A DNA stretch of 64,000 nucleotides, taken from IMG/VR virus record IMGVR_UViG_2841629896_000001; one strand, given 5' to 3'. The notes under the pieces were generated by a model that saw nothing but the letters and a program-made list of their open reading frames with translations, made no database searches and was not told where the DNA came from. Source of the DNA: an uncultured virus (IMG/VR IMGVR_UViG_2841629896_000001). Its lineage: Duplodnaviria; Heunggongvirae; Uroviricota; Caudoviricetes. Below are positions 5,900 to 51,511 of this stretch, piece by piece (the stretch's first letter is position 1; every line of letters begins with the position of its first letter). Made by a program: the position numbers and the translations under genes.

Positions 5900-6172
5900 G
5901 TGAACTCCTATGCAGTTAGACGTTTCTTAATGACACTCAAAAAGAGTGCCGGGTGCTAAGAAACACGGTGCATAGTCCGTCGTCACGCTTTTCCCAAAAG
6001 GGTATTTTATGGCACAGCCACACCCGACAAAACCATTATATGCGTGTAACATATAACGAGTCAAAGTTTTTAATCGGCGGAGAAAAGATTGTATCGGCAA
6101 TCTATCCGCTGTGTATTTAAAGTGTTTCTTAGGCACCTGATTCGATTATTCATATTTTCGCCATATTGTCAA
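5900..6172 (-). promoter_or_regulatory. Tandem promoters with a1-b1 and a2-b2 target sites, cassette 1
   Basis: TTGACA (6172-6167) and TTGACT-N18-TATAAT; b2 overlaps SD AGGAG. Confidence 0.75.
5948..6028 (-). ncRNA. C4-like antisense RNA, copy 1 (b'=CUAUGCA, a'=GUUUCUUA)
   Basis: Closing stem GUCGGGUG/CACCCGGC; ACGG-loop-CCGU hairpin; loops complementary to flanking a/b sites. Confidence 0.8.
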
Positions 6173-6210
6173 GCGGCTTTCGAGATTTTTTACATTTTTG
6201 CTAATTTGGC

Positions 6211-7518
6211 TTATCTATCTTCCTCGTCCATATGGATAACGCCTTCGCCTTCATCACATGCGTTAGGTGGGGCGTTTGGATCAAGGGTATCATCTTTATC
6301 TGGTGTGGTATTGGCTACGTTTTTTGCAGCGTCTTCTTGGGTTTCATCAAAAAGTTCACAATCTATTTTTGTGGTGTAACCACCTGTTTTATCAAGCTTG
6401 TGTTTGACGCTTTTGATGCGCCATTCTGCTGGAATATAGGGGCGGAAAGGGGGCTCATGAACAAGCTTTGCTTCTGCTTGCACAAAGGGATCACCACCAA
6501 TATCACATGAGAAAGAAGATTTCCCACGTGATGATTTGTTGCGATAAGCAGCAATAGCCGCAACAGCTTCTGATTGATTGTGGTAGGTGTATTTGAGTTC
6601 ATGAAACGGTGCTTGACCAACCTTGACTTCCTTTTTTTCACCAGTGCGGATATCATGATAGGTGGCAAGTACACCGCCCTTTTTCTCTTCTTCTTGCTCT
6701 TGATTTTCAGGTGTTTTGGCTTCCGTCTCTGCTTTAGGCAAATTGGGGGCGTCACTTTTATCCATATGGATCACATCTTCGCTGTCATCAACTTCTTCTG
6801 GTTCTCGTGCATCAGCGGCGGCTTTTTGGTCATCTCCTGCATCTGTTGCTAAGCCATTGGCGGCACCTGCTTCATCGCGTGCACTGTATTTAAAATCCCA
6901 AGAGGTACATTGTTTTTCATGGATGACAACGACGGGCAGTGTTTCACCAGTGATGGCTTTGCCTTCACCCCGTTTAGCCAAAACAAGCTTGCCATCAACG
7001 GGTTTTGCTACCGCATCATAGTCTTCTGCAAGGCGTGTGGCAAAAGCCATATCGCTCTCAGAAGTTTGATCAATGTGACGCACAACAATTTTTGCAAGAG
7101 CAGGATCAACTTTGGGGGTATAGCCATTGCGCTGTGCTATCTCTTGAATGATATTGCCAAGGGTTTGCTGGTGATAGGATTGGCTTTTGGGTGTTCTATA
7201 AGACGTGTTCATGGAGGCGGCGCGTCCTGTCACGCTTAAGCTTTGTGGGGGGCTGCTTACAGAGATTTCATCAATCAGATAGGCTCCCATATCCCGATTT
7301 TTACCGCCTTCATAGCCAAGTGTGACAGAAATGATTGTTCCGATGAGAGGAATATCAAGAAAGCCATTGTCGCTCTCACGCGCGCGGTCATCAAGTTCTA
7401 TGGTGATGCGGTCGCTTTTATCTTCTGCTTCATCCGTAATTTCAATCGACAAAACATAGTCCATAAGTATGCGTGTAATATCTTCTCCATTTGCCATTAC
7501 TGTGCAAAAAGGTTTCAT
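6211..7518 (-). CDS. Phage late control/baseplate hub protein (P2 GpD-like)
   Basis: SIEITDEAEDKSDRITIELDD; HIDQTSESDMAFATRLA; ATGA coupling to gpX. Confidence 0.85.
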   Translation of the reverse strand: MKPFCTVMANGEDITRILMDYVLSIEITDEAEDKSDRITIELDDRARESDNGFLDIPLIGTIISVTLGYEGGKNRDMGAYLIDEISVSSPPQSLSVTGRAASMNTSYRTPKSQSYHQQTLGNIIQEIAQRNGYTPKVDPALAKIVVRHIDQTSESDMAFATRLAEDYDAVAKPVDGKLVLAKRGEGKAITGETLPVVVIHEKQCTSWDFKYSARDEAGAANGLATDAGDDQKAAADAREPEEVDDSEDVIHMDKSDAPNLPKAETEAKTPENQEQEEEKKGGVLATYHDIRTGEKKEVKVGQAPFHELKYTYHNQSEAVAAIAAYRNKSSRGKSSFSCDIGGDPFVQAEAKLVHEPPFRPYIPAEWRIKSVKHKLDKTGGYTTKIDCELFDETQEDAAKNVANTTPDKDDTLDPNAPPNACDEGEGVIHMDEEDR

Positions 7519-7739
7519 GATTGGCTGCCCCAAATTCTAATCACCGGTGTGGCTTTGGGATAGGGGAGGATTGGCAAAACGATTGTGATGCCTGCTTTTA
7601 AAATCGGTCCATAGTCTGCAAGACCAAAATTTGCTGCATAAACGTGTTCAACAGCAAGAGCTTGTTGACCCTTGGCATAATATCTCCAGCAAATGGCATC
7701 AACCATATCGCCTTCTTTTGTCACGTAAAGATCACTCAT
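7515..7739 (-). CDS. Tail protein X (P2 GpX-like)
   Basis: TKEGDMVDAICWRYY; synteny U-X-D. Confidence 0.85.
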   Translation of the reverse strand: MSDLYVTKEGDMVDAICWRYYAKGQQALAVEHVYAANFGLADYGPILKAGITIVLPILPYPKATPVIRIWGSQS

Positions 7740-8116
7740 AGCTCTTCACCATATTCTCTCAATTTTATTGTAAATTCTTGTTTTTTTGGGGTCCCATTTT
7801 GGTGAAAAATGCTTTGCTTTTCTTCTACAGAAAGAATGACAAACTTTCCTAAAATTTTTCCCTGACCCGTCACAAGAATATGAGGACCATTATGTGCCAT
7901 TTGTCGCAAATATTCCAGTTGTCTATAACCGCCTTTAAAATCTGGATAGATCACACCGGTTAAAGAAAATTCCGCATTTGCAACGGCAGGCAATTGAAGT
8001 GCTGCTTTGCGCCCCAAACGCCCTTGCTCGACCCATGGAACACCATAAGACATGTCAAGGGTTTGATAAGCGGCCGTTTCAATGGAAAAGATAAAACTAC
8101 CCAAAGCTAACATCAT
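7736..8116 (-). CDS. Tail protein U (P2 GpU-like)
   Basis: MMLALGSFIFSIETAAYQ...GKILGKFVI. Confidence 0.85.
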   Translation of the reverse strand: MMLALGSFIFSIETAAYQTLDMSYGVPWVEQGRLGRKAALQLPAVANAEFSLTGVIYPDFKGGYRQLEYLRQMAHNGPHILVTGQGKILGKFVILSVEEKQSIFHQNGTPKKQEFTIKLREYGEEL

Positions 8117-8121
8117 GATGT

Positions 8122-10257
8122 TTAATCCGAAAGGCTAGAGGCTATAGCCAAGCGTTGCTGTTTGGCATAGCGTTCAAGGGCTTGGTTAACGGCGGCGCGG
8201 ATTTCATCTTTAAGACCATTGGGGACGGAAATATTTAAATTTGAAATCATCACGCGGGCATCGATTTCTATCGGCTTATGAACGGTAATGGGCTTGGGAG
8301 CTTTGAGGGAACCCACTTTTGCATTTGGAGCTTCCATATGCCTTGTTTCAACGCCCCCTGTATTAAAACCACTCTTGCGTTTTTCAGGGGGGGTATTTGT
8401 AACCACGGCTGTATCAAGCATTCTTTTGACAGGGGCTTTGGTTTGATTGGTAAAGGTTTTAATGGTCTTCGTTGAAGTTTTGTCGATTGTAGCCTTAAAT
8501 TCTGATTTTTTTCCTCCAAAGCCAGGTATCCAACTGGTTAATTTTTGGGTCTGGTTGCTAAACCAGTCAGACAGAGCATTCCATTTGCTTTTTATGCCAT
8601 CCCATAATCCCCCAATCAGATTGGAGCCTGCTTCCATTAAATCGACACCGAACAGCCATTCAATGAGTTCATTGATTTTTTTCGAAATCCAAGAGAGTGG
8701 TGAAAAGTTTTTAAAGAGCGCCAAGAGGTTATTAAAAACATTACTACATAAGCTCGCAAAAGAATCCCATAACTTGCTTATAAAGCTTATGACTGTGTCC
8801 CAATTTTTATAAAGCAGATATCCAATTCCAATAAGGGCTGCAATGCCAGCCATTATCCAGCCAATAGGTGTGGTCATGATAGCAACACCAAGCGATATAA
8901 AAGCAGAACCAACGGCGGTTATTGCTGGAATAAGTGAAGTTACAAGAGATACCGCAAGACCCGCAACTGCGGAAGCAGCCGGGACCATTGCTGCAATGAA
9001 TGATCCGATAAGAATTGTTCCAACTACAGCTAAAGATGCTGCTATCCAGCCATTGAGTTTATCCCAATATTTATAGAGTACAGCAAGTGTTGCAATACCG
9101 CCAATGAGCCAACCGATAGGGGTGGTCATCATAGCATAGCCAAGGCTAACAAATGCGGCTCCCACGGCTGCTAATGCGGTAATGAGTGGACCAAAAATGA
9201 AGGAACCAAGAGCGACAAGTCCCACCTTGAAAAGAGTTATTTCACCAATCAGAGGTTCTAGCCATTGGAACCAGCCTTTAATCCTCTCTGTAAGATCACT
9301 GATGCCCTTTCTTAAATCTGAGGTAGGATTAAGCAAATCTTGGAAGACTTTTCTTAAGGTTTTAGCCCAGCTCGCAACGGTTGTTTGAATGAGGTCACGG
9401 TTTTCATCAATCAACTTTGAAAAACCGTCAACCATATCATTGATCACGGGCATAAAGCGTGCGCCAATAAAGCTCGCGATACCACCTATTTTTTTCTTAA
9501 AGGCACCAAGCTTATCACTTAAATCTGCGGCATAGCGTGCAACATCGGCACCTATCAGCCATTTTCCTTTTCTCGCCTTTGCAAACAGCTCTTTAATGGG
9601 TGCCATGCCTTGTGAGAGCATGGATGCCATCTCTTTACCATCTCCACCAAACAGTAAGGCAGCAATGTGCTGTCTTTGTGCTTGATTTTTCATCTTACTC
9701 ATCTTGTCGGTAATTTCTTCTAGTAAGAGAGAATTTGATTTGAGTTTGCCAGAAGCATTTTTGACAGAAATACCAAGCGCTTCAAAGCCCATCATGCCTC
9801 TTTTTTGTCCGGCATATGCTTGTGCCGAACGCCTATTTAAAACCGCTAAGGATTGTTGAAAAAGCTCGGCAGAAGTGCCTGAATTATCGGCTGCATCCCC
9901 CCATAATTGAAGTGATGCAACACTCATACCTAAATGGTGTGAGGCATGGTAAAGACTATCCCCCAGATGCATGGTTTTCATGGTGAGGGCGGTTACACTT
10001 GCCACAAGCCCCCCACCAGCAAGCCCTAAGACACCGGTAAAGACCGAAGCACGGCTTGCCGCTGTACCAAGAGCACTTTGAACACCATGAAGACTTTTTG
10101 TCATGTTTTTTACAGCAGCAGAAAAGCGCGGAATACCCAAACTATGGGATAATTTTTTTGACAACGTATCGAATTGCTTTTGTACACGTTTAAGAGGCGC
10201 GGTGAGTTCGTCTTCAAGAGACAATCTCACCTTTGCGTCGGCAACTTTTTCACTCAT
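8122..10257 (-). CDS. Tail tape measure protein
   Basis: 711 aa, Ala/Gly-rich helical, TTPIGW...YKNWD repeats; synteny. Confidence 0.88.
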   Translation of the reverse strand: MSEKVADAKVRLSLEDELTAPLKRVQKQFDTLSKKLSHSLGIPRFSAAVKNMTKSLHGVQSALGTAASRASVFTGVLGLAGGGLVASVTALTMKTMHLGDSLYHASHHLGMSVASLQLWGDAADNSGTSAELFQQSLAVLNRRSAQAYAGQKRGMMGFEALGISVKNASGKLKSNSLLLEEITDKMSKMKNQAQRQHIAALLFGGDGKEMASMLSQGMAPIKELFAKARKGKWLIGADVARYAADLSDKLGAFKKKIGGIASFIGARFMPVINDMVDGFSKLIDENRDLIQTTVASWAKTLRKVFQDLLNPTSDLRKGISDLTERIKGWFQWLEPLIGEITLFKVGLVALGSFIFGPLITALAAVGAAFVSLGYAMMTTPIGWLIGGIATLAVLYKYWDKLNGWIAASLAVVGTILIGSFIAAMVPAASAVAGLAVSLVTSLIPAITAVGSAFISLGVAIMTTPIGWIMAGIAALIGIGYLLYKNWDTVISFISKLWDSFASLCSNVFNNLLALFKNFSPLSWISKKINELIEWLFGVDLMEAGSNLIGGLWDGIKSKWNALSDWFSNQTQKLTSWIPGFGGKKSEFKATIDKTSTKTIKTFTNQTKAPVKRMLDTAVVTNTPPEKRKSGFNTGGVETRHMEAPNAKVGSLKAPKPITVHKPIEIDARVMISNLNISVPNGLKDEIRAAVNQALERYAKQQRLAIASSLSD

Positions 10258-10415
10258 TTTGTCTTATACCTTTCTGCTGCTTGTTTTCGCCAGAATATGA
10301 GTTCTTGTGGTTCCATTTCCATCATCTCTGAAAGGGACCAATGGAACACAATGGCGATATCGGCTATGAGTTTTGCGGCGGTTTCCCAGTCAAGGTATCC
10401 CGCCGTTTGATAAAA
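10254..10415 (-). CDS. GpE'-like extension in the -1 frame of the tail chaperone
   Basis: -1 frame reads ADIAIVFHWSLSEMMEMEPQELIFWRKQA; its stop overlaps the tape measure ATG. Confidence 0.75.
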   Translation of the reverse strand, partial: FYQTAGYLDWETAAKLIADIAIVFHWSLSEMMEMEPQELIFWRKQAAERYKTK

Positions 10416-10651
10416 GACTCCAAGATCTCTCCAATGCTTGACAAATCATTGATATCAAGTTCACTGATAGCTTCATGCGGCCATCCAGAAAGGCGTGCGA
10501 TCATAGCGATTGTTTGCTCTACACCTTCTTTTTTATCAATGGCTTGCAAATCTTTTGTTTTGGGGCGCTGTAAGGTAATTGTGGTGTGCTCTTTTCCTTC
10601 AAAGGTAATAGGGATAAGCAATTGATGGGTAACACTTTGTTGTATAGTCAT
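10364..10651 (-). CDS. Tail assembly chaperone (GpE-like)
   Basis: ITLQRPKTKDL; lies between tube and tape measure. Confidence 0.8.
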   Translation of the reverse strand: MTIQQSVTHQLLIPITFEGKEHTTITLQRPKTKDLQAIDKKEGVEQTIAMIARLSGWPHEAISELDINDLSSIGEILESFIKRRDTLTGKPPQNS

Positions 10652-10652
10652 T

Positions 10653-11159
10653 TTATAATCCTATGTTTTCTCTGTGGCCTGCGAGTTGATTGACGCCATT
10701 GAATTTTCTGATGAGGTTGAGAACGTCTATCTCAACGATTTCAACGTCTTTCTGGACATATTTGAAATATTGCAATGTGAATGTTGCTGTAGAAGTTGCT
10801 TTGCCTCCCGGTTGCCATTCTGCCATTTCAAAGCCTTTGCAAAGTCCTCTCATGGTCATGACAACACCTTCTGCGGGTGTGCCTTGTGCTTGCATTGAAC
10901 TGCGCAATGAGATGTCGACATCTGTGCGTCCCAACAGTGCCATTAATTCTGGAGAGCAATCAGAAATGGTCATGCTAAGCGTGAGGGTTTCAAGACCAAG
11001 ATCAACCTCAATGGAGCTATCCATGCCACCGCCGCGATAACTCTCAACGACCAAACTCAAATTCGGTAGGGTGACACTTTCACATTTTGCTTGATAGGGA
11101 ATGCCGTCGACAAAAATGTTAAAATATTTCAAAACTCTTGGTAATACGGGGACTGTCAT
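10653..11159 (-). CDS. Major tail tube protein (FII-like)
   Basis: VTLPNL...YRGGGMD...EIDVLN. Confidence 0.9.
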   Translation of the reverse strand: MTVPVLPRVLKYFNIFVDGIPYQAKCESVTLPNLSLVVESYRGGGMDSSIEVDLGLETLTLSMTISDCSPELMALLGRTDVDISLRSSMQAQGTPAEGVVMTMRGLCKGFEMAEWQPGGKATSTATFTLQYFKYVQKDVEIVEIDVLNLIRKFNGVNQLAGHRENIGL

Positions 11160-12370
11160 TAAAAGATCTCCTCTAGGTAATCATTGATGATTTGTGAACG
11201 GAACGTGATGTGTTCTGCGGGTGTTGTCGGGGTAAATTCCACATTGAAATAGACTCTGCCGCTTTCAATGGCGCTTGCTGTATTAAGCTCTAGATCAGGC
11301 GTACAGCGCCCACCAAGAATAGCGCCTTGTGCTTTCAAATCACGCAAATAAGCATTGACGCTTTCACTCACATCATGCATGTACGTTTTTTTGATATTGC
11401 GGTCGACAGCCCATAGGTGTCCGCGCAAAATAGCATCATTGATCATATCTGCGGTGCGCACCACGGATAAAAAAGCAAATTTTGTATCGCTTGAGAGTGT
11501 GCGATTGCCCCAGAGACGATAGCCATTTTCGCGAATAATGGTTGTGATGTTTTGTTCATTGAGAAGGTTGGCACGGCTTGATCTGTCACCAATGGAAAAA
11601 TCAATGGGGCGCGCAGTTCCCACAATTCCATTGATCACTTTATTAGAAGGGGAATGCCAAAAGCCATGAGTAAAATCATTTTTGGCAATGACACCAGCAA
11701 CCACTGCACTCGCGGGCTGTTCTATGATTTTGCCATCACGATTTATCTTTACAAACGGGTCAATGAGAATAGCGCGTTTTGAATCAAAATCCTTTGCTGT
11801 GCTAAGGGCTGCTTCATCTGTTGTGTTTGGAGCATCAAGCACCACAATAGCGCGCAAACGCTCTGCAATGCCAATCAGTTCTGCTGCGACGGGGTTGGCA
11901 GTCGCATCAGTTTCATCATTTTCAGTATTCACACTGGAAGGGCGTTGATGTGTAAAGCCTGGAGCAATCAGAATACGTGGTGTTTGTCCTACAATGGATT
12001 GTGCTCCAATGAAAGCATGAACGCCTTCATAAGCACCATTTGCGTTTACACCACCTAGAATATTGGTGAGTGTTGCATTTTCGTTGTCACCTTCTTGCAC
12101 ACGGATGACAACGACAATTGCTCCTACTTGTTTAAAAATGAGATCAAGGGCATTGGGTAATGTACCTTGACGCTTACCCGTTTTATCGAGTTTTGCGGCT
12201 TGTGAAAGAGAGCCTGCGACCAAAACCGGTGTGTTGAGGGGGAATGCTTGTTCATCAGCATCGGGTGCTGTGCCAACAATTCCGATAACGGCAGACTGAA
12301 CCGCACGAAGGGGGCGGGTGCCGTCGTCAACCTCAACGACTTCAACACCGTGTAAAAAACCTGTTGCCAT
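11159..12370 (-). CDS. Contractile tail sheath protein (FI-like)
   Basis: FLHGVEVVEV, PRILIAPGF, GFWHSPSN, GYRLWGNRT. Confidence 0.92.
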   Translation of the reverse strand: MATGFLHGVEVVEVDDGTRPLRAVQSAVIGIVGTAPDADEQAFPLNTPVLVAGSLSQAAKLDKTGKRQGTLPNALDLIFKQVGAIVVVIRVQEGDNENATLTNILGGVNANGAYEGVHAFIGAQSIVGQTPRILIAPGFTHQRPSSVNTENDETDATANPVAAELIGIAERLRAIVVLDAPNTTDEAALSTAKDFDSKRAILIDPFVKINRDGKIIEQPASAVVAGVIAKNDFTHGFWHSPSNKVINGIVGTARPIDFSIGDRSSRANLLNEQNITTIIRENGYRLWGNRTLSSDTKFAFLSVVRTADMINDAILRGHLWAVDRNIKKTYMHDVSESVNAYLRDLKAQGAILGGRCTPDLELNTASAIESGRVYFNVEFTPTTPAEHITFRSQIINDYLEEIF

Positions 12371-12476
12371 TTTATACTCCTTTAAAATATTGGTTAATGA
12401 AATGAATGGAAAAACGAAGGGGATGATTGCTGTGTTTGTTAAACTGGCATTACGATAAAAAATTATCGAAAATATC

Positions 12477-12751
12477 TTGACATTATTTCTGCAATGTGTA
12501 TTTTCAAATCAGGTGCCTGAAAAACGCCTTAAATACACAGCGGACAAACTACCGACATAGTTTATTTTCCGCACATTAAAGACTTTGACTCATTATATGC
12601 TACATGCGTATAATAGATTTGTCGGGTGTAGTTGCGCTATACAATACCCTTATGGGGAAAGCATAACGACGGACTGTGTACCGTGTTTTTCAGCACCCGG
12701 CACTCTTCTGGAGTGTCAATGAAAAACGTTTAATTACACAGGAGCCAAATC
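12477..12751 (+). promoter_or_regulatory. Tandem promoters with a1-b1 and a2-b2 target sites, cassette 2
   Basis: TTGACA 12477; TTGACT 12585-N18-TATAAT 12609; TGAAAAAC at 12518 and 12720; TACACAG at 12534 and 12735. Confidence 0.78.
12621..12701 (+). ncRNA. C4-like antisense RNA, copy 2 (b'=CUGUGUA, a'=GUUUUUCA)
   Basis: 3-way junction; loops are exact reverse complements of both flanking a/b pairs. Confidence 0.82.
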
Positions 12752-13510
12752 ATGGCGCAATATTTAATCGACATACACAAAGCTACGATTGATGGTGATA
12801 TCGTTCAGACCGTTAATGCACGTGAATTACATACATTTTTGGAAGTAGGTAAAAAGTTTGCGGATTGGATTACTGAACGTATCAACAAATATAATTTAGT
12901 AGAAAATCAAGACTTTGTTTGCTTCCCTATTTTGGGAAGCAAAGGCAGGGGTGGTCACAATCGTAAAGACTATCACCTTACCTTAAGCGTAGCTAAAGAG
13001 CTTTCTATGCTTGAAAATAATAAGAAAGGTAGAGAAGCTCGTTTATACTTTATCGAATGTGAAAGACGGTTAAAACAAGTAGCAACACCACAGATAGTCG
13101 CTCCACAAGTTGATTACTCCAAACCCGAAGCATTACTTGGTGTCTTAAATCATCTACAAAGACAAATCGAGAAGAAGGATAACACCATTGCTGAATTGAC
13201 TCCAAAAGCAGAGGCTTTAGAAGGCTTAAAACGTTCTGATGGTTTGTTTGGTCTTATCGAAGCAGCGAAGATGTTGGAGGTGCGACCAAAGGACTTAACC
13301 GATTACTTGCGTAAACATGATTGGGTCTATCGTCGTGCTCCAGGGGCGCCTTTGTTACCTTATCAGGATAAAATCAAAAAAGGCTTCATGGATTGCCCTG
13401 CTATCACCATTCAAAGACCGGATGGTACAGAAAAGGTACTCCCTTCAACGAAAATCACATCCAGAGGATTGGCATGTTTGAGAGAGCAAATCCATGGAGG
13501 TGTACAATGA
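12752..13510 (+). CDS. Antirepressor-like protein AntA/AntB plus KilAC, cassette 2
   Basis: VNARELHTFLEV; C-domain nearly identical to other cassettes. Confidence 0.88.
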   Translation: MAQYLIDIHKATIDGDIVQTVNARELHTFLEVGKKFADWITERINKYNLVENQDFVCFPILGSKGRGGHNRKDYHLTLSVAKELSMLENNKKGREARLYFIECERRLKQVATPQIVAPQVDYSKPEALLGVLNHLQRQIEKKDNTIAELTPKAEALEGLKRSDGLFGLIEAAKMLEVRPKDLTDYLRKHDWVYRRAPGAPLLPYQDKIKKGFMDCPAITIQRPDGTEKVLPSTKITSRGLACLREQIHGGVQ

Positions 13511-13785
13511 AGATAGATACCAACTTCTTGTGCGATTTATGGATGGCATTATCTCAATTTTCTAGACATGGAAATATGAATGATAAAGATTGTACAGCTC
13601 TGGTTGATACTATGAGTGTCATAGAAAAAGCTTTGATTTTAAAACTACAAGATGAGATGCCAAGTATGCTTAAAATCTTAACAGTTCTAACAGATTTCGG
13701 AGATTCAGAATTACCGCATAGCATGGATTCTTTATTGCGCGCTTACGAACCAAATTTCGAGAGCCCCATTAAAAAAGTTGCTTAA
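13507..13785 (+). CDS. Conserved 92-aa protein coupled to ant, copy 2
   Basis: ATGA overlap; MKIDTNFLCDLW. Confidence 0.8.
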   Translation: MKIDTNFLCDLWMALSQFSRHGNMNDKDCTALVDTMSVIEKALILKLQDEMPSMLKILTVLTDFGDSELPHSMDSLLRAYEPNFESPIKKVA

Positions 13786-13830: not shown

Positions 13831-14172
13831 TTACGAATGGCTATGTTCCATTTGCGCATTCATTTCTCTAGCTGTTAGTGTTGGAACTTTGCTAACATCT
13901 GTTTCCCGTTCTGCATGCCAAGCATCATAATTGGCTTGCATACGTAACCATATGGCAGCTCCATCACCAAACATTTTTCCAAGGCAAGCAGAAATAGCAG
14001 GAGAAACAGGCTTTTTTGCCTTCAGGATATCATAAAGATGTTGGCGTGATATACCGAGCATCTGTGCAATTTCTAATTTTGTTTTGCCTGTCTCAGGAAT
14101 AATATCTGCTAAAACTTTTCCTGGATGAGTAGGGCAGCGGTTTTTATCTCTTTGTGCAGGAATGTCATTCAT
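13831..14172 (-). CDS. higA: HigA family antitoxin
   Basis: PTHPGKVL...WLRMQANYD; start reassigned to 14172. Confidence 0.88.
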   Translation of the reverse strand: MNDIPAQRDKNRCPTHPGKVLADIIPETGKTKLEIAQMLGISRQHLYDILKAKKPVSPAISACLGKMFGDGAAIWLRMQANYDAWHAERETDVSKVPTLTAREMNAQMEHSHS

Positions 14173-14182
14173 AACTGTATCC

Positions 14183-14461
14183 TTAGTGATATTGTTCAAG
14201 ATCAACACGGTAAGCATTACATGAGTCAAATTCAAAAGTAATACACCATGGTCCGTTAACGTGGACAGTGTAACGAGTGGGTGAATATCCAATCAAAGAA
14301 TGAAAGTTAAATCCTGGAAGATTCATATCTTCTGGTTTTTCAGAAAAATCTAAACGATCAAGGCGAACCATGATACGTTTTACAAGTCTCTTATCAATCT
14401 TGGATGAATTTCCCGTTTTGAATAATTCTGCCAATGTTTTGCTTTTAAACGTTTTAATCAT
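14183..14461 (-). CDS. higB: HigB family toxin
   Basis: MIKTFKSKTL...PGFNFHSL...VNGPWCITF...DLEQYH. Confidence 0.88.
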   Translation of the reverse strand: MIKTFKSKTLAELFKTGNSSKIDKRLVKRIMVRLDRLDFSEKPEDMNLPGFNFHSLIGYSPTRYTVHVNGPWCITFEFDSCNAYRVDLEQYH

Positions 14462-14655: not shown

Positions 14656-15480
14656 TTAGAACTCACAATTGGTGATGATAAGCTCTTTAGCGGGAATTGC
14701 ATTATTTGAGGCGTTACACGAATAAAACGTGTTTATTTTTTTTAAGGTAAATTGACTGAAGGTTTTTCGAACTTCTGGCACATCATTGAGAGACAAAAGA
14801 AACTTCCCTTTTAATTGTGCGAGCAGTATAGCCATCCTCTGATAATCCTCCCGCTTAAACAAATCTTTTCCGTAATAATCCTCAACACCCCAATAAGGCG
14901 GGTCGAGGTAAAACAAGGTGTTTGGACGATCATAACGCACAATAAAATCAGTCCAGTCTAAATGTTCAATGGTAACACCCGCTAAACGGCGATAAATAAG
15001 CTTTAATAAGTCCTCAAGTTTCAAAGCATTAAACCGGGCACCACGGTCTGTTTCAACTCCAAACGTACGATTGGCGACCTGACCACTAAAGCTTAACCGC
15101 TGTAAATATAAAAACCTTGAAGCCCGTTCTAAATCCGTAAGCGTTTCTGGATTTTGTGACCGTAATCGTTGAAATTCCTCACGGCTGCTTATTTGAAACT
15201 CCAAAAACTCTATAAACGGGTGATAATGGCGTTGTAACACCCGAAAAAAATTCACCACATCTCCTAAACGGTCATTAATAATTTCAGTAGGGGGTATCAA
15301 TTTTCTCCTAAAGAATATTCCACCCATTCCAACGAAAGGTTCGGCATAAATGCTATGAGGGATGTCTTCGATAATTTTGATAATGGTTTTGGCTAATCTT
15401 CTTTTGCCTCCAATATAAGCAGCAGCTGGTGAGATAGGATCAACAGATTTTAATTTTTCTTTACAAAGTGTATCCATCAT
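14656..15480 (-). CDS. D12/Dam-family DNA adenine methyltransferase
   Basis: YIGGKRRLA, EPFVGMG, FYLDPPY. Confidence 0.9.
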   Translation of the reverse strand: MMDTLCKEKLKSVDPISPAAAYIGGKRRLAKTIIKIIEDIPHSIYAEPFVGMGGIFFRRKLIPPTEIINDRLGDVVNFFRVLQRHYHPFIEFLEFQISSREEFQRLRSQNPETLTDLERASRFLYLQRLSFSGQVANRTFGVETDRGARFNALKLEDLLKLIYRRLAGVTIEHLDWTDFIVRYDRPNTLFYLDPPYWGVEDYYGKDLFKREDYQRMAILLAQLKGKFLLSLNDVPEVRKTFSQFTLKKINTFYSCNASNNAIPAKELIITNCEF

Positions 15481-24668: not shown

Positions 24669-24947
24669 TTAAGCAACCTTTTTAATGGGGCTATCGAGAT
24701 TTGGTTCATAAGCGCACAATAAAGAATCCATGCTATGCGGTAATTCTGAATCGCCAAAATCTGTGAGAACTGTTAAGATTTTAAGTATACTTGGCATCTC
24801 ATCTTGGAGTTTTGAAATTAAAGCTTTTTCTATGACACTCATAGTATCAACCAGAGCTGTACAATCTTTATCATTCATATTTCCATGTCTAGAAAATTGA
24901 GATAATGCCATCCATAAATCGCACAAGAAGTTGGTATCTATCTTCAT
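24669..24947 (-). CDS. Conserved 92-aa protein coupled to ant, copy 3
   Basis: ATGA overlap; near-identical to copies 2 and 4. Confidence 0.8.
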   Translation of the reverse strand: MKIDTNFLCDLWMALSQFSRHGNMNDKDCTALVDTMSVIEKALISKLQDEMPSILKILTVLTDFGDSELPHSMDSLLCAYEPNLDSPIKKVA

Positions 24948-25684
24948 TGTACACCTCCATGGATTTGCTCTCTCAAACATGCCAATCCTCTGGATGTGAT
25001 TTTCGTTGAAGGGAGTACCTTTTCTGTACCATCCGGTCTTTGAATGGTGATAGCAGGACAGTCCATAAAGCCTTTCTTGATCTTGTCCTGATAAGGCAAC
25101 AAAGGCGCCCCTGGAGCCCGTCGATAGACCCAATCATGTTTACGCAAGTAATCCGTTAAATCCTTTGGTCGCACCTCTAACATCTTCGCAGCTTCGATAA
25201 GACCAAACAAACCATCAGAACGTTTTAAACCTTCCAAAGCCTCTGCTTTTGGAGCCAATTCGGCAATGGTGTTATCCTTCTGCTCGATTTGATTTTGTAA
25301 GTGATTTAAAACACCAAGTAATGCTTCGGGTTTGGAATAATCAACTTGTGGTGTTGCTACTTGCTTTTCCAATTCTTGCCAACGGTCAATAATCTTTGCT
25401 CGTAAAGTAGTGTTATAACCAGAAACAAGAATTAGACATTCACGCTTTGGAAGGTTGTAACAAGGAAGTGTACGCCCTGTTGAGTCTTTGTATAATCCTG
25501 AAAAATCACTCACCCCAAATTTGGGGGCAGTACTTTCAGAGTTTAATTCTCCTAACATTTGTTTAATGTCACGCATGACATGGTCATGTCTTTTACCGCA
25601 CAACTCAGCAATTTCGCGACTAGACATAGTCTGAGTGGTAGCACTATTAGCAGTGCTTTCTTTAATTTCTATAAGTGTGTTCAT
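24944..25684 (-). CDS. Antirepressor-like protein, Rha-type N-domain plus KilAC, cassette 3
   Basis: MSSREIAELCGKRHDHVMRDI...LRAKIIDRWQELE; shared C-domain. Confidence 0.88.
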   Translation of the reverse strand: MNTLIEIKESTANSATTQTMSSREIAELCGKRHDHVMRDIKQMLGELNSESTAPKFGVSDFSGLYKDSTGRTLPCYNLPKRECLILVSGYNTTLRAKIIDRWQELEKQVATPQVDYSKPEALLGVLNHLQNQIEQKDNTIAELAPKAEALEGLKRSDGLFGLIEAAKMLEVRPKDLTDYLRKHDWVYRRAPGAPLLPYQDKIKKGFMDCPAITIQRPDGTEKVLPSTKITSRGLACLREQIHGGVQ

Positions 25685-25957
25685 AATGAACTCCTTGGTA
25701 ATAGACGTTTTTGATTGACACTCTAAAAGAGTGCCGGGTGCTCAAAAACACGGTACCAAGTCCGTCGTTATGCTTTCCCTGCGAAGGTATTTTATAGCAC
25801 AACCACACCCGACAAGATCTTTATATGCTACCACATATAATGAGTCAAAATCTTTAATGTTCAGAAGATTGATTATTTCGGCAATCAATCCGCTTGGTAT
25901 TTTAAGGTGTTTTTGAGGCACCTGATTCGATTATTCATATTGTCGCCACATTGTCAA
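25685..25957 (-). promoter_or_regulatory. Tandem promoters with a/b target sites, cassette 3
   Basis: TTGACA and TTGACT-N17-TATAAA; b2 TACCAAG runs into SD AGGAG. Confidence 0.75.
25733..25813 (-). ncRNA. C4-like antisense RNA, copy 3 (b'=CUUGGUA, a'=GUUUUUGA)
   Basis: Same fold; TCAAAAAC and TACCAAG occur both upstream and downstream. Confidence 0.82.
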
Positions 25958-34455: not shown

Positions 34456-34723
34456 ACGTACGACTATCTTCAAACGTGATTTCAAGCGTGAGATGAAAGG
34501 ACGATATCGGCATCTTTTAGATACTGATTTACGCAAAGTCATCGCAGCATTAGCAAATGATCAACCTTTAGAGCTTCGATATCATGACCATGCTTTAACT
34601 GGAAATTGGAAAGATTATCGGGATTGTCATATTCGACCTGATTTGGTTTTGATCTATCGCTTGATTGGTCAAGAGAGGCTCGTTTTAGTGCGTCTTGGTT
34701 CTCATTCACAGCTTAATCTGTAA
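34442..34723 (+). CDS. yafQ: YafQ family toxin
   Basis: DHALTGNWKDYRDCHIRPDLVLIY...RLGSHSQL. Confidence 0.9.
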   Translation: MRTIERTTIFKRDFKREMKGRYRHLLDTDLRKVIAALANDQPLELRYHDHALTGNWKDYRDCHIRPDLVLIYRLIGQERLVLVRLGSHSQLNL

Positions 34724-34778: not shown

Positions 34779-35057
34779 TTAAGCAACCTTTTTAATGGGG
34801 CTCTCGAAATTTGGTTCATAAGCGCGCAACAAAGAATCCATGCTATGTGGTAATTCTGAATCGCCAAAATCTGTGAGAACTGTTAAGATTTTGAGTATAC
34901 TTGGCATCTCATCTTGAAGTTTTGAAATTAAAGCTTTTTCTATGACACTCATAGTATCAACCAGAGCAGTACAATCTTTGTCATTCATATTCTCATGTCT
35001 AGAAAATTGAGATAATGCCATCCATAAATCACATAAGAAGTTGGTATCTATCTTCAT
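34779..35057 (-). CDS. Conserved 92-aa protein coupled to ant, copy 4
   Basis: ATGA overlap; MKIDTNFLCDLW. Confidence 0.8.
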   Translation of the reverse strand: MKIDTNFLCDLWMALSQFSRHENMNDKDCTALVDTMSVIEKALISKLQDEMPSILKILTVLTDFGDSELPHSMDSLLRAYEPNFESPIKKVA

Positions 35058-35797
35058 TGCACACCTCCATGGATTTGCTCTCTCAAACATGCCAAACCTC
35101 TGGATGTGATTTTTGTCGAAGGGAGTACCTTTTCTGTACCATCTGGTCTTTGGATAGTGATAGCAGGACAATCCATGAATCCTTTCTTGATTTTATCTTG
35201 GTAAGGTAACAAAGGTGCTCCTGGAGCTCGTCGATAGATCCAGTCATGTTTGCGCAAGTAATCGTTTAAATCCTTTGGTCGCACCTCTAACATCTTCGCT
35301 GCTTCGATTAAACCAAACAAACCATCAGAACGTTTTAAGCCTTCCAAAGCTTCTGCTTTTGGCTTGAGTGTACTCACCTCATTTCTTAAGTCTTCTAATT
35401 GATTGATACTCTCTAAAAGGAGCTGTTTAATCGTAAGAGGATTTTCCAATGCATTGGCAAGATCTACTTGTGGTGTTGCTACTTGTTTCAAAAGCCGTTC
35501 ACATTTGATAAAGTATTGACGTGCTTCATGCCCTTTATCATTACGTTCGATCATGGAAAGATGTTTAGCCATGTCTAAGGTAATGTGGTATTCTTTAGAA
35601 GGACGCCCACCTGAACTTTCGCTCAAAAAAGAGCAAAAGTCATATCCTTCTTTAAATTTACAGTCTTGAATACGTCTGATAATCCAGTCTTTAAAGCTGG
35701 TTTTTACTTCTAAAAACGCATGCAAATCACGAGCATTAACGGTTTGGACAGTTTCCTGATCAATAGTTTGTTCCGATATCGGAATAAGAGTGTTCAT
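35054..35797 (-). CDS. Antirepressor-like protein AntA/AntB plus KilAC, cassette 4
   Basis: VNARDLHAFLEV; shared C-domain; start after SD AGGAG. Confidence 0.88.
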   Translation of the reverse strand: MNTLIPISEQTIDQETVQTVNARDLHAFLEVKTSFKDWIIRRIQDCKFKEGYDFCSFLSESSGGRPSKEYHITLDMAKHLSMIERNDKGHEARQYFIKCERLLKQVATPQVDLANALENPLTIKQLLLESINQLEDLRNEVSTLKPKAEALEGLKRSDGLFGLIEAAKMLEVRPKDLNDYLRKHDWIYRRAPGAPLLPYQDKIKKGFMDCPAITIQRPDGTEKVLPSTKITSRGLACLREQIHGGVQ

Positions 35798-36076
35798 GTG
35801 AACTCCTTGTTGATAGATGTTTCTTAATGACACTCCAAAAGAGCGCCGGGTGCTAAGAAACACGGCAACAAGCCCGTCGTTATGCTTTTCCCCCGAAAGG
35901 GTATTTTATGGCATAACCACACCCGACAAGACCAGTATACGCTATACGCGCATAATGAGTCAAAGCCTTTACAATGTGCGGAAGACTGATTATTTCGGCA
36001 ACCAATCCGCTTGTTGTTTTGAGGTGTTTCTTAGGCACCTGATTCGGCAATAGACATAACATCACTGCCTTGTCAA
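35798..36076 (-). promoter_or_regulatory. Tandem promoters with a/b target sites, cassette 4
   Basis: TTGACA and TTGACT-N18-TATACT; b2 CAACAAG runs into SD. Confidence 0.75.
35845..35927 (-). ncRNA. C4-like antisense RNA, copy 4 (b'=CUUGUUG, a'=GUUUCUUA)
   Basis: Same fold, UUCG-capped middle stem; TAAGAAAC and CAACAAG on both flanks. Confidence 0.82.
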
Positions 36077-39815: not shown

Positions 39816-40688
39816 TCAAGCTGCTTTGAGAAGTGATATTGTGTTCTTTTCTAAGAATTGAGGCATTTTGATTTTAGGCGAAAAAATCATCAGTTCAGTA
39901 GCTTGCCTTTTCTCCTGTAGAGAATACTGTATGTTGAATTCTACTAAGGGATATTTTCTGTACAAAGATTTAATTTCTTCTACATTATCATAGGTGATCA
40001 ACCAGGGCGCATTCACATGTTGGGAAAGGGTATTTTCTAATACCTGATGATCGTTAGCTTGATAAAATGAAGCATATAATCCTCGTCCTTTTTTAAAATA
40101 AGGAGGGTCCATATAAAAGAAAATATTTTCATCTTTATCTGTCCCATAACGTAGCAAAAACTCTCGTGCATCTAACCATGTTAAATGTATCCTATCTTTG
40201 TGCGTACTTATGCGAAGAATGCGTTCAATGATGTTTTTTTTGTTAAATCGGCAATTTATTTTATAATTGCCATTTTGTCCTTTGCCTCCAATTGGACCAG
40301 AATTTTTAATAATTCCAGATCGATTTGTACGATTTAAAAAGAGTGCAGCAAATCCTAGGCTAAGTACATCTGCTTGTTCAGAAGAAATTTCTTTTTGTTT
40401 ATACCATTCTTCTAAGCTAACGGCCGTTGTGTTAATTTTTTCTATTAATTCTTCTGTTTTGTGTAAGACACAATGCCAAAAGCTCCAAATGAATGGATCA
40501 ATATCGTTAATATGAATATCTTTAACGTCATTATTCAAAAGAAGCTTGAGCGCAAGCCCACATCCACCAGCAAAAGGTTCCCTATAGGAACATCCATTTA
40601 ATCCATTTTTTTCAAAAATTTCTTTGATTTTTCCATAAAGTATGGCTTTACCGCCTGGATATCTCAATGGTGAGCAGATATGAGTCAT
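39816..40688 (-). CDS. Dam/D12-family DNA adenine methyltransferase
   Basis: SPLRYPGGK, EPFAGG, YMDPPY. Confidence 0.9.
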   Translation of the reverse strand: MTHICSPLRYPGGKAILYGKIKEIFEKNGLNGCSYREPFAGGCGLALKLLLNNDVKDIHINDIDPFIWSFWHCVLHKTEELIEKINTTAVSLEEWYKQKEISSEQADVLSLGFAALFLNRTNRSGIIKNSGPIGGKGQNGNYKINCRFNKKNIIERILRISTHKDRIHLTWLDAREFLLRYGTDKDENIFFYMDPPYFKKGRGLYASFYQANDHQVLENTLSQHVNAPWLITYDNVEEIKSLYRKYPLVEFNIQYSLQEKRQATELMIFSPKIKMPQFLEKNTISLLKAA

Positions 40689-44926: not shown

Positions 44927-45523
44927 GTGATTATGACAAAAAACATCATTGCTACATTGCAAGTATTGCAATCTGAATTTGGTCTCAGCCAACAAGATCT
45001 TGCAGAGAGATTAAATGTAACCCAAGCAACCATATCAAGATGGTTGGGGGAGTCAGATCCTAGAGGTTCACATAGAGATGCAATTTATAAAAGCTTAAAG
45101 GGCTATAACCAAATTACTACACTCGTTCCTATTATGGGGTATGTAGGAGCAGGACTAGAGATTGATACAGATGTTGAACAAATTCCAGAAGATGGGCTTG
45201 AGACAGTTGAAATACCATTTGATTTACCTTTTGAAGCATTAGGTTTCATGGTTCGTGGAGATTCCATGTATCCTGTGTATAAAGATGGTGATTTAATTGT
45301 AGTTAAACATCTGCAAACAAAGCCAGTAAGCGATTATTATGGTGATGAAGTTGTTGTTCTAACAGAAGATAATAGGCGATTCATCAAACAAATTACTCGT
45401 TCTCTAGAGGGCATTGTACTTAAATCATGGAATGCAGACCCTATTAAAAATGCTAAGATAAAATGGGTTGGAGAAATAGTTGCAATACTACCACGTAAAT
45501 CTTATCGTCCACTTATGAAATAA
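44927..45523 (+). CDS. CI-like repressor (HTH plus S24 peptidase)
   Basis: LSQQDLAERLNVTQATISRW; VGAG cleavage site; VRGDSMYP; FIKQ. Confidence 0.92.
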   Translation: MIMTKNIIATLQVLQSEFGLSQQDLAERLNVTQATISRWLGESDPRGSHRDAIYKSLKGYNQITTLVPIMGYVGAGLEIDTDVEQIPEDGLETVEIPFDLPFEALGFMVRGDSMYPVYKDGDLIVVKHLQTKPVSDYYGDEVVVLTEDNRRFIKQITRSLEGIVLKSWNADPIKNAKIKWVGEIVAILPRKSYRPLMK

Positions 45524-46530: not shown

Positions 46531-47253
46531 ATGCATAATTTTGTCACAACGGCCAAAAGCAATTTTAATAACAAAACTGTTCAAACTATGTCCAGTCGTG
46601 AAATTGCTGAACTATGTGGTAAGCAACATGCACATTATGCGTGATATTAGGCAAATGTTAGGGGAATTATACCCTGAAGAGGGTCAATCCAAATTTGGAT
46701 CCACCTATTTAGACAAACAAGGCAAGCCCCAAAACTGCTACCATCCCCAAACGTGAATGCCTCATCTTAGTTTGGTTACAACATGGCATTACGTGCTAGG
46801 ATTATAGACCGTTGGCAAGAATTGGAAAAGCAAGCAGTAACACCACAAATCGACTATTCAAGTCCAAAAGCTATGATTGGCTTTTTGAATTACCTCCAAG
46901 GGCAAATAGATCAAAAAGACAGCATTATTGAAGATTTAACACCAAAAGCCATGGCACTTGAAAGTTTACAGCGCCATGATGGGCTCTTTGGTCTTACTGA
47001 AGCCGCGAAAATACTCGAGATGCAACCAAAACAATTCATTCAATTTTTACAGCAAAAAGGTTGGATTTACAGNCNGGGCAGCGGGGGAAATTTTCCCCCT
47101 TATAAAAAAAAAACCAAAAAGNAACTGATGGATTGCCCACCCACCACACTCAAAACCGCCAGTGGAATAGAAAAAGTCATTCCTTGCGCAAAAATCACAG
47201 CAAAAGGCATGGGGCTGTTGTCTCAAGAGCTTAAAAGACAAAGCATGCATTAA
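46531..47253 (+). pseudogene. Rha-type plus KilAC antirepressor, frameshifted (no C4-like leader)
   Basis: TMSSREIAELCGKQH; LRARIIDRWQELE; KITAKG. Confidence 0.75.
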
Positions 47254-50562: not shown

Positions 50563-50679
50563 AAAAAGGGTGTTCTATTTGCTGGAAGTTCAGTGACAAA
50601 TTTAAAAAATGGAGATAAGAAACATCAACAGGCTTTAAAGCCTTCTCATAGTCAATAAATCTATTAAAAAAGGGGAAAA

Positions 50680-51099
50680 ATGAAACAAACTTTAAAATTA
50701 TTAAGCTGCATAGCTTTATTAAATATGGCTGGATGTAACTCAAAGCCTCCTTCAACATCCTTTGTTATATGGGAAAAGCCAGGTGTAAACTCTACTGAGG
50801 TAGGAAACGCACTATTAGAGTGTGGTGCGCTATCTCCTTATAGTAGCGGTATAGACAATAGCAAATTAGGCATTCATGAATGGTCGATGATTCATGCTTG
50901 TATGATCCAATCAGGATTTCACTATAAAATTAAAGATGGGAAATGGTGTGAAAATTGTAAAGATGATAGGATTCCGGTATATTCTCTTAATAGTTCTATC
51001 AAGACTCAAAGAAGTGTTGAGAAACGCTTAAACAGCTCGTTTTGTAAAAACGACGGTATAATAAAACTTCTCAATATCAACACTCCGTTTTGCCATTGA
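50680..51099 (+). CDS. Cys-containing lipoprotein
   Basis: Signal peptide ending MAGC; ALLECG, CMIQSGF. Confidence 0.7.
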   Translation: MKQTLKLLSCIALLNMAGCNSKPPSTSFVIWEKPGVNSTEVGNALLECGALSPYSSGIDNSKLGIHEWSMIHACMIQSGFHYKIKDGKWCENCKDDRIPVYSLNSSIKTQRSVEKRLNSSFCKNDGIIKLLNINTPFCH

Positions 51100-51172
51100 T
51101 CATCAACAATCAAAATACTGTATGGGATAGTAATAGCTTATATGCGAACAGATTTTTGGGAACAATGACATA

Positions 51173-51216
51173 CCCTTATGGAACAGTGGGCTGCCCCTTA
51201 TGGAACAGTGGGCTGC
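51173..51216 (+). repeat. Perfect 22-bp tandem duplication
   Basis: cccttatggaacagtgggctgc x2. Confidence 0.9.
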
Positions 51217-51234
51217 ATTTATAACAGGAGCGAC

Positions 51235-51511
51235 TTGACAGGCTTATAACAATGTGTCTATTGTCGAATCAGGTGCCTGAAAAACACCTTGAATCGATAG
51301 CGGATAGATTGCCGAAACAATCTTTTCTCCGCACATTAAAGGCTTTGACTCATTGTATGCTACACGCATATAATGACTTTGTCGGGTGTGGTTATGCTAT
51401 ACAATACCTTTTATAGGGAAAGCGTGACGACGGACTATCGACCGTGTTTTTCAGCACCCGGCATCCTTTGTTGGATGTCAATGAAAAATCTCTAATCGAT
51501 AGGAGTTCGTT
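51235..51511 (+). promoter_or_regulatory. Tandem promoters with a/b target sites, cassette 5
   Basis: TTGACA 51235; TTGACT-N18-TATAAT; TCGATAG upstream and over the SD. Confidence 0.75.
51381..51462 (+). ncRNA. C4-like antisense RNA, copy 5 (b'=CUAUCGA, a'=GUUUUUCA)
   Basis: Same fold and covarying loops. Confidence 0.82.

Follow-up and report, generated by a model that had tools for sequence, protein, structure and literature searches.

The sequence analyzed here (hereafter the window) is a stretch of 64,000 nucleotides of the IMG/VR virus record IMGVR_UViG_2841629896_000001; it represents the first 64 kb of this 117-kb provirus record and consists of Bartonella DNA. A leader of approximately 275 nucleotides recurs five times in the window, each time directly upstream of a gene (ant) for an antirepressor-like protein. 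Every leader carries two short words, a and b, at three sites: as a1 and b1 in its 5' part, as the complementary words a' and b' in a core RNA, and as a2 and b2 immediately before the gated gene. The word pairs differ between the copies and covary within them. In our assessment, each leader is quite probably an antisense-RNA lock of the c4/immI type, and the leaders are a real, amplified, and diversified variant of this known kind of switch.

The five leaders were compared in a single five-sequence alignment, in which the mean column identity was 80%. A BLAST search of the record with copy 2 as the query recovered the other window copies with E-values between 5e-63 and 2e-41, and the alignment and the search together confirmed the five locations proposed in the initial annotation of the window. 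The elements of the leaders are ordered as that annotation had described, namely an outer promoter-like site (P1), a1 in the loop of a short hairpin, b1, a longer hairpin, an inner promoter-like site (P2), a three-way junction, a hairpin, a2, b2, the Shine-Dalgarno sequence (SD), and the ATG start codon. This order was found in 5/5 window copies and in 16/16 copies of the genome that carries the window, with the exception that one genomic copy (L261) is without a2 and b2. In the RNAalifold consensus, the core is a three-way junction of about 82 nt closed by GUCGGGUG/CACCCGGC; the word b' lies within the loop of hairpin 2 (with the stem ACGG/CCGU), and a' within the single strand between hairpin 2 and the closing stem. 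In all five copies b2 runs into AGGAG, and the ATG of ant follows about 10 nt after b2.

To collect leaders from other genomes, we used a search pattern in which the invariant stems were fixed and the words were left as N, and therefore the covariation was not forced by the pattern. Of the 181 pattern matches, 112 unique loci with at least 200 nt upstream and at least 80 nt downstream were retained. The exact cognate word was present in 101 of these loci for a1, 102 for b1, 98 for a2, and 101 for b2, while the respective frequencies among the 12,432 non-cognate locus pairs were 19%, 5.8%, 17%, and 5.3%. All four words were exact in 86/112 loci, and the combination of exact a2 and b2 was found in 96/112 loci versus 1.3% of the non-cognate pairs. 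Among 161 unique loci with long enough flanks, a2 and b2 were both exact in 135 and one of the two was exact in 15; this set also includes seven tandem leaders (with the next leader within 300 nt) and four orphans with a recurrent break point.

The covariation of loop and target words also held in a larger alignment (A5), produced by MAFFT from 145 sequences that were drawn at random from the 208 leaders remaining after near-duplicate removal from 220 unique leaders. For a structure with the three-way junction, a1:a', and b1:b', 97.5% of the alignment cells pair, whereas the shuffled value is 88.7% and none of 500 shuffles reaches the observed one; a control with slid partners gives 36-46%. 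Separately, the pairing cells amount to 96.4% for a1:a' and 96.7% for b1:b', and in five of the seven b1:b' pairs both partners have changed in a compensatory manner, in 54-76 sequences for each pair and with three to four types of pair represented. The pairing of a' with a2 is approximately 95%, and that of b' with b2 only 71.5%, a value that we attribute to letters misplaced by MAFFT gaps around b2, since the exact-word search described above detects b2 in 101/112 loci. The a' and b' words stand out as the variable positions of an RNA that is constant elsewhere: the mean entropy reaches 1.0 bit for the b' loop and 0.41 for a', as compared to 0.13 in the closing stem and 0 in the hairpin 2 stem. 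Altogether, cataloguing the codes over the 112 loci gave 9 a-words, 24 b-words (30 in a larger set), and 54 combinations. Every b word, whether 24 or 30 are counted, ends in AG and is followed by GAG, as had been noticed for the five window copies, and the copy-specific covarying code postulated for them is thus supported by both the 112 loci and the 145-row alignment.

RNA data from a related Bartonella concern a 3.2-kb segment with four leader copies (L273) from G028, a genome at B. henselae coordinates. One noncoding RNA sequencing (ncRNA-seq) run, X7, covers this segment in four islands only, with peak depths of 12,800-119,800, and the islands are the four cores (positions 568-649, 1141-1223, 2001-2082, and 2571-2652 of L273). 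Adapter remnants place RNA ends 3, 4, and 6 nt past the closing stem, and one further end at the first G of GUCGGGUG. The coverage and the ends fit an abundant core-sized RNA of about 85-88 nt in this related Bartonella. In another RNA run the contigs cover a1b1 together with the core, and in two further runs they bridge the core, a2b2, and the start of ant; therefore longer transcripts exist too. As these data are contigs, the uncovered parts of L273 carry no weight, and silence of ant is not concluded from them.

The lock that we propose would operate as follows. A three-way-junction RNA of about 85 nt would be made from the inner promoter P2, and the same RNA would probably also be cut from longer transcripts of the outer promoter P1. 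It would expose b', a word of 7 nt, in the hairpin 2 loop and a', a word of 7-8 nt, in the single strand before the closing stem, and these words would pair, presumably in trans, with a2 and b2 shortly before the gated gene. Such pairing would block ribosome binding, since the final AG of b2 is also the start of the AGGAG SD, and neither Ant, a putative antirepressor, nor the product of a small translationally coupled gene (orfX) would be made. The words a1 and b1, identical copies of the target words present in P1 transcripts only, would most likely act as a decoy that ties up a' and b', and an active P1 would thereby let the gated gene fire. Because the words differ between the copies, silencing by each RNA would be expected to concern mainly the cassette to which it belongs, or one of the same code that enters from outside; the logic is that of the heteroimmunity of phages P1 and P7.

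The covariation alone cannot separate action in cis from action in trans, as all three sites could be present on one transcript. In a purely cis-acting leader switch, a' and b' would alternate between a1/b1 and a2/b2 of the same molecule in the manner of an attenuator or riboregulator, with no diffusible repressor and with neither immunity nor addressing. The three sites indeed lie within about 275 nt, the RNA contigs bridge both a1b1 with the core and the core with a2b2 and the ant start, intramolecular pairing accounts for the covariation equally well, and the codes within a genome show no excess distinctness. We still regard such a switch as improbable, given the separate core-sized RNA that dominates the ncRNA-seq library at four loci and the near-consensus promoter located directly before the core. 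The RNA-only copies among the 161 loci (7 tandem and 4 orphan) make sense if the RNA is trans-acting, and it would be hard to obtain 24-30 b-words that change at three sites of an invariant RNA without selection on intermolecular specificity. In addition, the c4 RNA of P1, which has the same layout, is listed as trans-acting in the available part of a review. Even less credible, to the point of being very nearly dismissed, is the possibility that the words are operators for a DNA-binding protein such as the variable N-terminal domain of Ant, so that their covariation would mirror protein-DNA specificity. These domains are of DNA-binding types and share 36-74% identity between cassettes, and each word occurs three times per leader; the third occurrence, however, is always the reverse complement and always falls in the loop or junction of an RNA fold that is itself conserved and covarying, the core is abundant as RNA, the position of b2 relative to the SD is fixed, G-U-compatible changes occur (for example, in a2 of copy 5), and the same words precede unrelated protein classes.

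A further alternative retains the RNA mechanism and changes its role: the cassettes would be modules of an RNA antitoxin and a toxic protein, similar to type I toxin-antitoxin or abortive-infection systems, and the KilAC protein, instead of being an antirepressor, would harm the cell when the RNA is lost or out-titrated. We consider this role rather unlikely, while several facts speak for it. According to the available text on sRNA-Xcc1, a related RNA discussed below, it lies upstream of the toxin gene symE in Xanthomonas integron cassettes, and the P1 record carries the remark 'can kill host' for the product of KilA. Some leaders gate genes other than ant (for YdcK-like solenoid proteins and an uncharacterised protein of about 100 aa), copies 1-4 combine ant with a coupled orfX and a neighbouring type II toxin-antitoxin pair that copy 5 lacks along with orfX, and the KilAC halves are 93-99% identical while the N-terminal domains vary. 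On the other side, an AntA or Rha domain joined to KilAC is the usual antirepressor-type architecture, the prophage has a possible target in its CI/LexA-type S24 repressor (44927-45523), and the P1 precedent gates a true antirepressor.

Several results weigh against the antisense-lock interpretation itself. Between 9 and 13% of the sites are not exact matches, and copy 1 tolerates a mismatched b1. P1 and P2 are consensus matches only, and a shuffled region gives 1.2 such sites on average. Intrinsic terminators were sought after the core and after b1, and none was found. The RNA evidence comprises assembled contigs of a different Bartonella species that convey no strand and no true level, with ends taken from adapter remnants only, and the antirepressor function ascribed to the gated proteins is read from the names of their domains. 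The initial annotation had called the leaders C4-like and had suggested a scan with the Rfam models C4 (RF01695, cut-off 45 bits) and c4-a1b1 (RF03163, cut-off 46.7 bits), which belong to the clan CL00128. At E<=10, C4 had no match in copy 2 (351 nt), in the region 5700-13000, or in the whole 117-kb record, and c4-a1b1 had none in the leaders or the record; as a positive control, P1 scored 68.8 bits with C4 and 51.0 bits with c4-a1b1 in the same scan. The likeness is therefore one of architecture and not of membership in the C4 family. The nearest family is sRNA-Xcc1 (RF02221, cut-off 53 bits), and 0/7 copies of the record reach its cut-off. Finally, no open reading frame (ORF) resembling icd of P1 lies between b2 and ant in the five copies, the small orfX being located after ant; the Rho-polarity step of P1 therefore need not apply.

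The separation of the codes is also less than perfect. We added up duplex energies in a crude matrix that covers 13 of the 16 genomic copies; L265, L267, and L268 fell outside the regular expression and were left out. In this matrix the cognate mean was -14.9 kcal/mol versus -5.8 kcal/mol for other combinations, and the cognate RNA was the best for 11/12 targets. The initial annotation had described the circuits as insulated; yet a-words are shared between copies and the matrix predicts cross-talk, which counts against the proposed addressing, with the RNA of copy L255 reaching -16 kcal/mol on the target of copy 1 as compared to -18 kcal/mol for the cognate RNA. Likewise unfavourable is the outcome for selection of orthogonality within genomes, which we looked for in 267 within-genome pairs: both words were shared in 4 of them (1.5%) versus 2.65% between genomes, the latter value being inflated by near-identical strains, and the codes were no more distinct than the diversity of the pool predicts. 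Orthogonality of the circuits, as judged from these modelled energies and pair counts, is plausible, neither complete nor seen to be selected within genomes.

The five window copies have exactly the a/b word pairs listed in the initial annotation, and both exceptions reported there, in b1 of copy 1 and a2 of copy 5, proved right. Copy 1 (5900..6172, minus strand) has the code a=TAAGAAAC, b=TGCATAG, with the P1 -35 box at 6167-6172, a1 at 6124-6131, b1 at 6109-6115, P2 at 6035-6064, the hairpin at 5933-5950, a2 at 5922-5929, b2 at 5908-5914, and the ATG at 5897-5899. Its core RNA occupies 5948..6029 (b' 5969-5975; a' 5957-5964) and scores 40.4 bits (E 5e-7) with RF02221. The b1 of this copy is TACACAG, in contrast to TGCATAG in b'/b2. 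The 5' half of copy 1 is identical to that of L255, a genomic copy with the code TACACAG; this identifies copy 1 as a recombinant leader and accounts for the mismatch. Copy 2 (12477..12751, plus strand; code TGAAAAAC/TACACAG) includes P1 at 12477-12504 (-35 box 12477-12482), a1 at 12518-12525, b1 at 12534-12540, P2 at 12585-12614, the hairpin at 12699-12716, a2 at 12720-12727, b2 at 12735-12741, and the ATG at 12752. The core RNA of copy 2 (12620..12701; b' 12674-12680; a' 12685-12692; 50.2 bits with RF02221, E 2.6e-9) folds as a three-way junction with a minimum free energy of -26.2 kcal/mol. Its promoter-like sites match the consensus at 10/12 positions for P1 (TTGACA-type) and at 11/12 for P2 (TTGACT-18-TATAAT).

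Copy 3 (25685..25957, minus strand) has the code TCAAAAAC/TACCAAG, the P1 -35 box at 25952-25957, a1 at 25909-25916, b1 at 25893-25899, P2 at 25820-25848, the core RNA at 25733..25814 (b' 25754-25760; a' 25742-25749; RF02221 48.1 bits), the hairpin at 25718-25735, a2 at 25707-25714, and b2 at 25694-25700. For copy 4 (35798..36076, minus strand; code TAAGAAAC/CAACAAG), the respective positions are 36071-36076 for the P1 -35 box, 36026-36033 for a1, 36010-36016 for b1, 35934-35963 for P2, 35845..35928 for the core RNA (b' 35866-35872; a' 35854-35861; RF02221 41.4 bits), 35830-35847 for the hairpin, 35819-35826 for a2, and 35806-35812 for b2. Copy 5 (51235..51511, plus strand; code TGAAAAAC/TCGATAG) has the P1 -35 box at 51235-51240, a1 at 51278-51285, b1 at 51294-51300, P2 at 51345-51374, the core RNA at 51380..51462 (b' 51435-51441; a' 51446-51453; RF02221 44.6 bits), the hairpin at 51460-51478, a2 at 51482-51489, and b2 at 51496-51502. 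Its a2 is TGAAAAAT, giving a G-U pair, and a2/b2 are exact in the other 4/5 window copies. Copies 1 and 4 have one a word in common, and so do copies 2 and 5. A search for a..b word pairs across the window found them in the leaders only, without extra targets.

Some further observations relate to the P1 promoters. A look by eye at the five-copy alignment for a common operator in them revealed nothing obvious. A GANTC site (GAATC in ...TCGAATCAGGTG) is located about 95-125 nt upstream of the core, e.g. in the 12490-12496 region, and GANTC coincides with the predicted start of the P1 transcript in 104/161 unique loci. In alphaproteobacteria, methylases of the CcrM type act on GANTC. Two adenine methyltransferases of the D12 class (14656-15480 and 39816-40688) are encoded in the prophage. 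Control of P1 by methylation is conceivable on the basis of these motifs.

The antirepressor-like character of the downstream genes noted in the initial annotation is borne out by Pfam, which recognizes three AntA+KilAC proteins, one Rha+KilAC protein, and one AntA-only protein behind the window leaders. The genes ant1 (5162..5899, minus strand; 245 aa; AntA PF08346 4.8e-24 and KilAC PF03374 4e-21), ant2 (12752..13510, plus strand; 252 aa), and ant4 (35054..35797, minus strand; 247 aa from the ATG at 35797, a start set by b2/SD) encode the first type, and ant3 (24944..25684, minus strand; 246 aa) encodes a Rha-type N-terminal domain (PF09669 9.7e-21) with KilAC (PF03374 1.3e-21). The product of ant5 (51512..52042, plus strand; 176 aa) has the AntA domain only and an unrelated C-terminus. 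Among Ant1-4, the last 110 residues are 93-99% identical, and the first 110 residues 36-74%. Each of the first four genes is followed by an orfX of about 92 aa on the same strand: orfX1 (4887..5165; MKIDTNFLCDLW...) and orfX2 (13507..13785) begin with an ATG that overlaps the ant stop (ATGA), and orfX3 (24669..24947) and orfX4 (34779..35057) overlap the stops of ant3 and ant4. A Pfam search with orfX1 returned no family; at other loci, a related protein is encoded directly after the leader. Across 217 distinct downstream ORF starts, the leaders precede genes for AntA-type, two Rha-like types, YdcK-like solenoid proteins, and the uncharacterised protein of about 100 aa, and no gene of the XRE type was among them.

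Type II toxin-antitoxin pairs adjoin ant-orfX of cassettes 1-4 (4141-4843, 13831-14461, 24025-24622, and 34192-34723), and a further pair is found at 1-570, after a leader copy to the left of the window. These five pairs are of the RelB/YafQ (twice), Gp49/HI1420, and HigB/HTH (twice) types, and most are convergent with the cassette. The association looks systematic, as seen in this one prophage; the cassette of copy 5 has neither orfX nor such a pair, and its ant5 adjoins tRNA-Leu 52295-52377(-). The first prophage starts before the window, ends at this tRNA-Leu, and carries a lambda-type head, a P2-type tail, a CI/S24 repressor, ERF, and YqaJ. Its CI/LexA-like repressor with an S24 peptidase domain, encoded on the plus strand, would suggest itself as the candidate target, should the Ant proteins be true antirepressors. 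A KilAC-only ORF (46783-47253(+), 156 aa) shares 73% identity with the C-terminal half of the Ant protein of a second prophage; the X residues in its translation reflect ambiguous bases of the window. The second prophage begins at an integrase gene (57505-58548(-)) and includes RecT, YqaJ, several YdcK-type beta-solenoid ORFs (60414-61810), and an AntA+KilAC gene (61823-62668) with no recognisable leader.

The number of copies exceeds that proposed in the initial annotation, which had assigned five circuits to one prophage. The record contains seven leader copies: the five in the window and two in the second prophage, at 68.1 and 75.4 kb (68105-68217 and 75396-75513). The latter two represent a divergent subtype; their layout is the common one, each has words of its own that match, and they gate YdcK-like proteins of 174 and 243 aa. 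Another copy lies about 0.7 kb to the left of the window, and the first prophage thus has six. The genome carrying the window (G032) has 16 copies, one of them on a plasmid contig that matches a named B. kosoyi plasmid at identical coordinates. Altogether, 68/90 Bartonella genomes have a BLAST match to the leader, and seven Bartonella plasmids have one copy each. The pattern search identified 112 stretches in viral contigs, with 4-10 copies in many proviruses, and at least 132 stretches in species genomes, where 80/80 matches listed were from Bartonella. A blastn search with the leader against 50,697 phage records gave no match. Tandem leader arrays with a period of about 273 nt and no gene between the units were observed in four viral contigs (L026, L034, L067, and L106), some with identical codes. 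Such arrays would, judging from their codes, raise the dose of one RNA key.

A wider interpretation, which we find possible although somewhat doubtful, is that Bartonella mobile elements run a system of combinatorial RNA addressing. In such a system, dozens of keys per genome, composed of at least 9 a-words and 24-30 b-words, would each lock a potentially harmful gene of the antirepressor or Kil type. A cassette that enters a cell lacking its key would fire, inducing resident prophages or killing the cell, whereas resident and orphan keys would disarm matching incomers; the diversity of words would be the product of an arms race between the elements, for which plasmid incompatibility and heteroimmunity offer a comparison, and the whole sRNA-Xcc1 family would work in this way. 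Prophages and related mobile islands shape the genomes of Bartonella, and a multi-copy layer of RNA immunity over antirepressor-type genes, if confirmed, would bear on prophage cross-induction and gene transfer in these bacteria. The two-word antisense codes, of which at least 54 occur naturally on a single conserved scaffold, could also be tested directly as a library of orthogonal regulators, and they offer a model of how RNA-RNA specificity diversifies when three sites must change together.

The kind of switch is known; what is new, as far as the parts of the literature found go, is the Bartonella branch, the number of copies that it reaches in an element and in a genome, the extent of its two-word repertoire, and the c4-style sites flanking an RNA of the sRNA-Xcc1 type. 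In the literature on c4 antisense RNA, antirepressors, and Bartonella small RNAs, we found no description of the Bartonella leader family and no account of so many differently coded copies in one genome. The initial annotation likewise knew of no description of such a multi-copy orthogonal set; multi-copy sets of this kind of RNA as such have been reported in Xylella and in APSE phages, without the concept of a code in the available text.

The leaders share some general features with the Brt RNAs already described in Bartonella. According to the portion of text available, Brt1-9 lie upstream of XRE-type Trp regulators in B. henselae, with a riboswitch or attenuator mechanism proposed (Tu et al. 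2016, PMC5387305), and they are the only such RNAs described in that transcriptome study. Both groups are Bartonella-specific and multicopy, and both are leader transcripts of about 200 nt placed directly before DNA-binding-type genes in plastic genome regions. In contrast, the sequence families and loci are different: the Brt genes are located at 1.44-1.72 Mb of G028 versus 372-411 kb for 11 leader copies. The identity of the two groups, which had been considered, was rejected, as all BLAST matches of the leader in G028 fall at 372-411 kb and none at the Brt coordinates. At the published Brt coordinates in G028, we found an unrelated repeat followed by a 118-aa XRE ORF. The consensus of the Brt alignment, by which rather than by direct alignment the two were set apart, shows none of the conserved blocks of the leader. 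These Brt repeats (L269-L272) share about 80% identity over approximately 300 nt, and their last part, immediately ahead of the XRE gene, is a GC-rich hairpin, GCGAGGGCGCTCGC. The agreement with the Brt paper (PMC5387305) in one copy on the B. grahamii plasmid is a coincidence. Hence there are two separate multicopy leader families in Bartonella.

The comparison with IsrK of the Salmonella Gifsy-1 prophage is of a different sort. By the available part of a review, IsrK activates translation of the downstream orf45-anrP operon, and this agrees with the a1b1 part of such leaders serving as an activator or, as proposed here, a decoy. The isrK model (RF01394) matches the a1b1 segment of P1 with 35.1 bits and gave no match in a scan of the Bartonella leaders, and, unlike in IsrK, the b1 of Bartonella is not followed by a recognized terminator.

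The similarity to the immI region of P1 and P7 is extensive, as had been proposed initially. The annotated P1 record has the order Oc4, P51a, P51b, a1, b1, c4 (77 nt), a2, b2, icd, and both the topology and the order of the sites a1, b1, RNA, a2, b2, SD are equal to those in Bartonella. Both systems gate an antirepressor-type gene, and in both b2 directly adjoins the SD, with about 10-11 nt left to the start codon. The C4 consensus likewise consists of a closing stem and two hairpins, where b' occupies the loop of the second hairpin and a' the junction strand on the 3' side, and the RNAs are of the same order of size (77 nt in P1 and about 85-88 nt in Bartonella). However, no sequence or covariance-model similarity is detectable between them. 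Both P1 promoters are upstream of a1b1, whereas the Bartonella leaders add a promoter-like site between b1 and the RNA; a2 of P1 starts 4 nt after c4, whereas an extra conserved hairpin precedes a2 in Bartonella; and there are many copies per element instead of one, in an alphaproteobacterial host. The Bartonella leaders are thus of the same kind as c4/immI by architecture, but their family membership by covariance model fails.

By covariance model, the leaders are closest to sRNA-Xcc1, the best Rfam match for 7/7 record copies (40.4-50.2 bits, E 2.6e-9 to 5.4e-7). Two sister copies in another Bartonella genome (G001) pass the cut-off with 56.6 and 54.4 bits, and therefore the Bartonella family straddles it. 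The available accounts state that sRNA-Xcc1 was first described in Xanthomonas integron cassettes and treat it as a trans-acting, Hfq-type, or virulence-linked sRNA. They report C4, isrK, and sRNA-Xcc1 RNAs before BRO/ORF6N genes in APSE phages, and seven sRNA-Xcc1 homologues, five of them in tandem, in Xylella; flanking cognate sites are not mentioned in the available text for APSE, Xylella, or Xanthomonas. RF02221 exceeded its cut-off in 25/151 sampled Pseudomonadota genomes. We examined the flanks of 24 non-Bartonella loci over the cut-off, with the Bartonella locus and the sub-cut-off loci left out. In 12/24 of them, an exact 7-mer of the hairpin 2 loop or the 3' junction was complemented both 80-100 nt upstream and 4-16 nt downstream, as compared to 29/552 permuted core/flank pairs. 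A model of our own (R1) detected single weaker copies in 3/150 other genomes of the same order, with the key-and-lock pattern kept. The two groups share the three-way junction and are multi-copy in some genomes; the Bartonella branch differs by an additional hairpin ahead of a2, reaches much higher numbers of copies, and uses by far more words. Our analysis provides a mechanistic reading, with key and lock words around a c4-type fold, for RNAs that the available literature treats as generic trans-acting or virulence-linked sRNAs. From the flanking words, the c4 logic appears to be a property of the whole sRNA-Xcc1 kind, which Bartonella has amplified and diversified.

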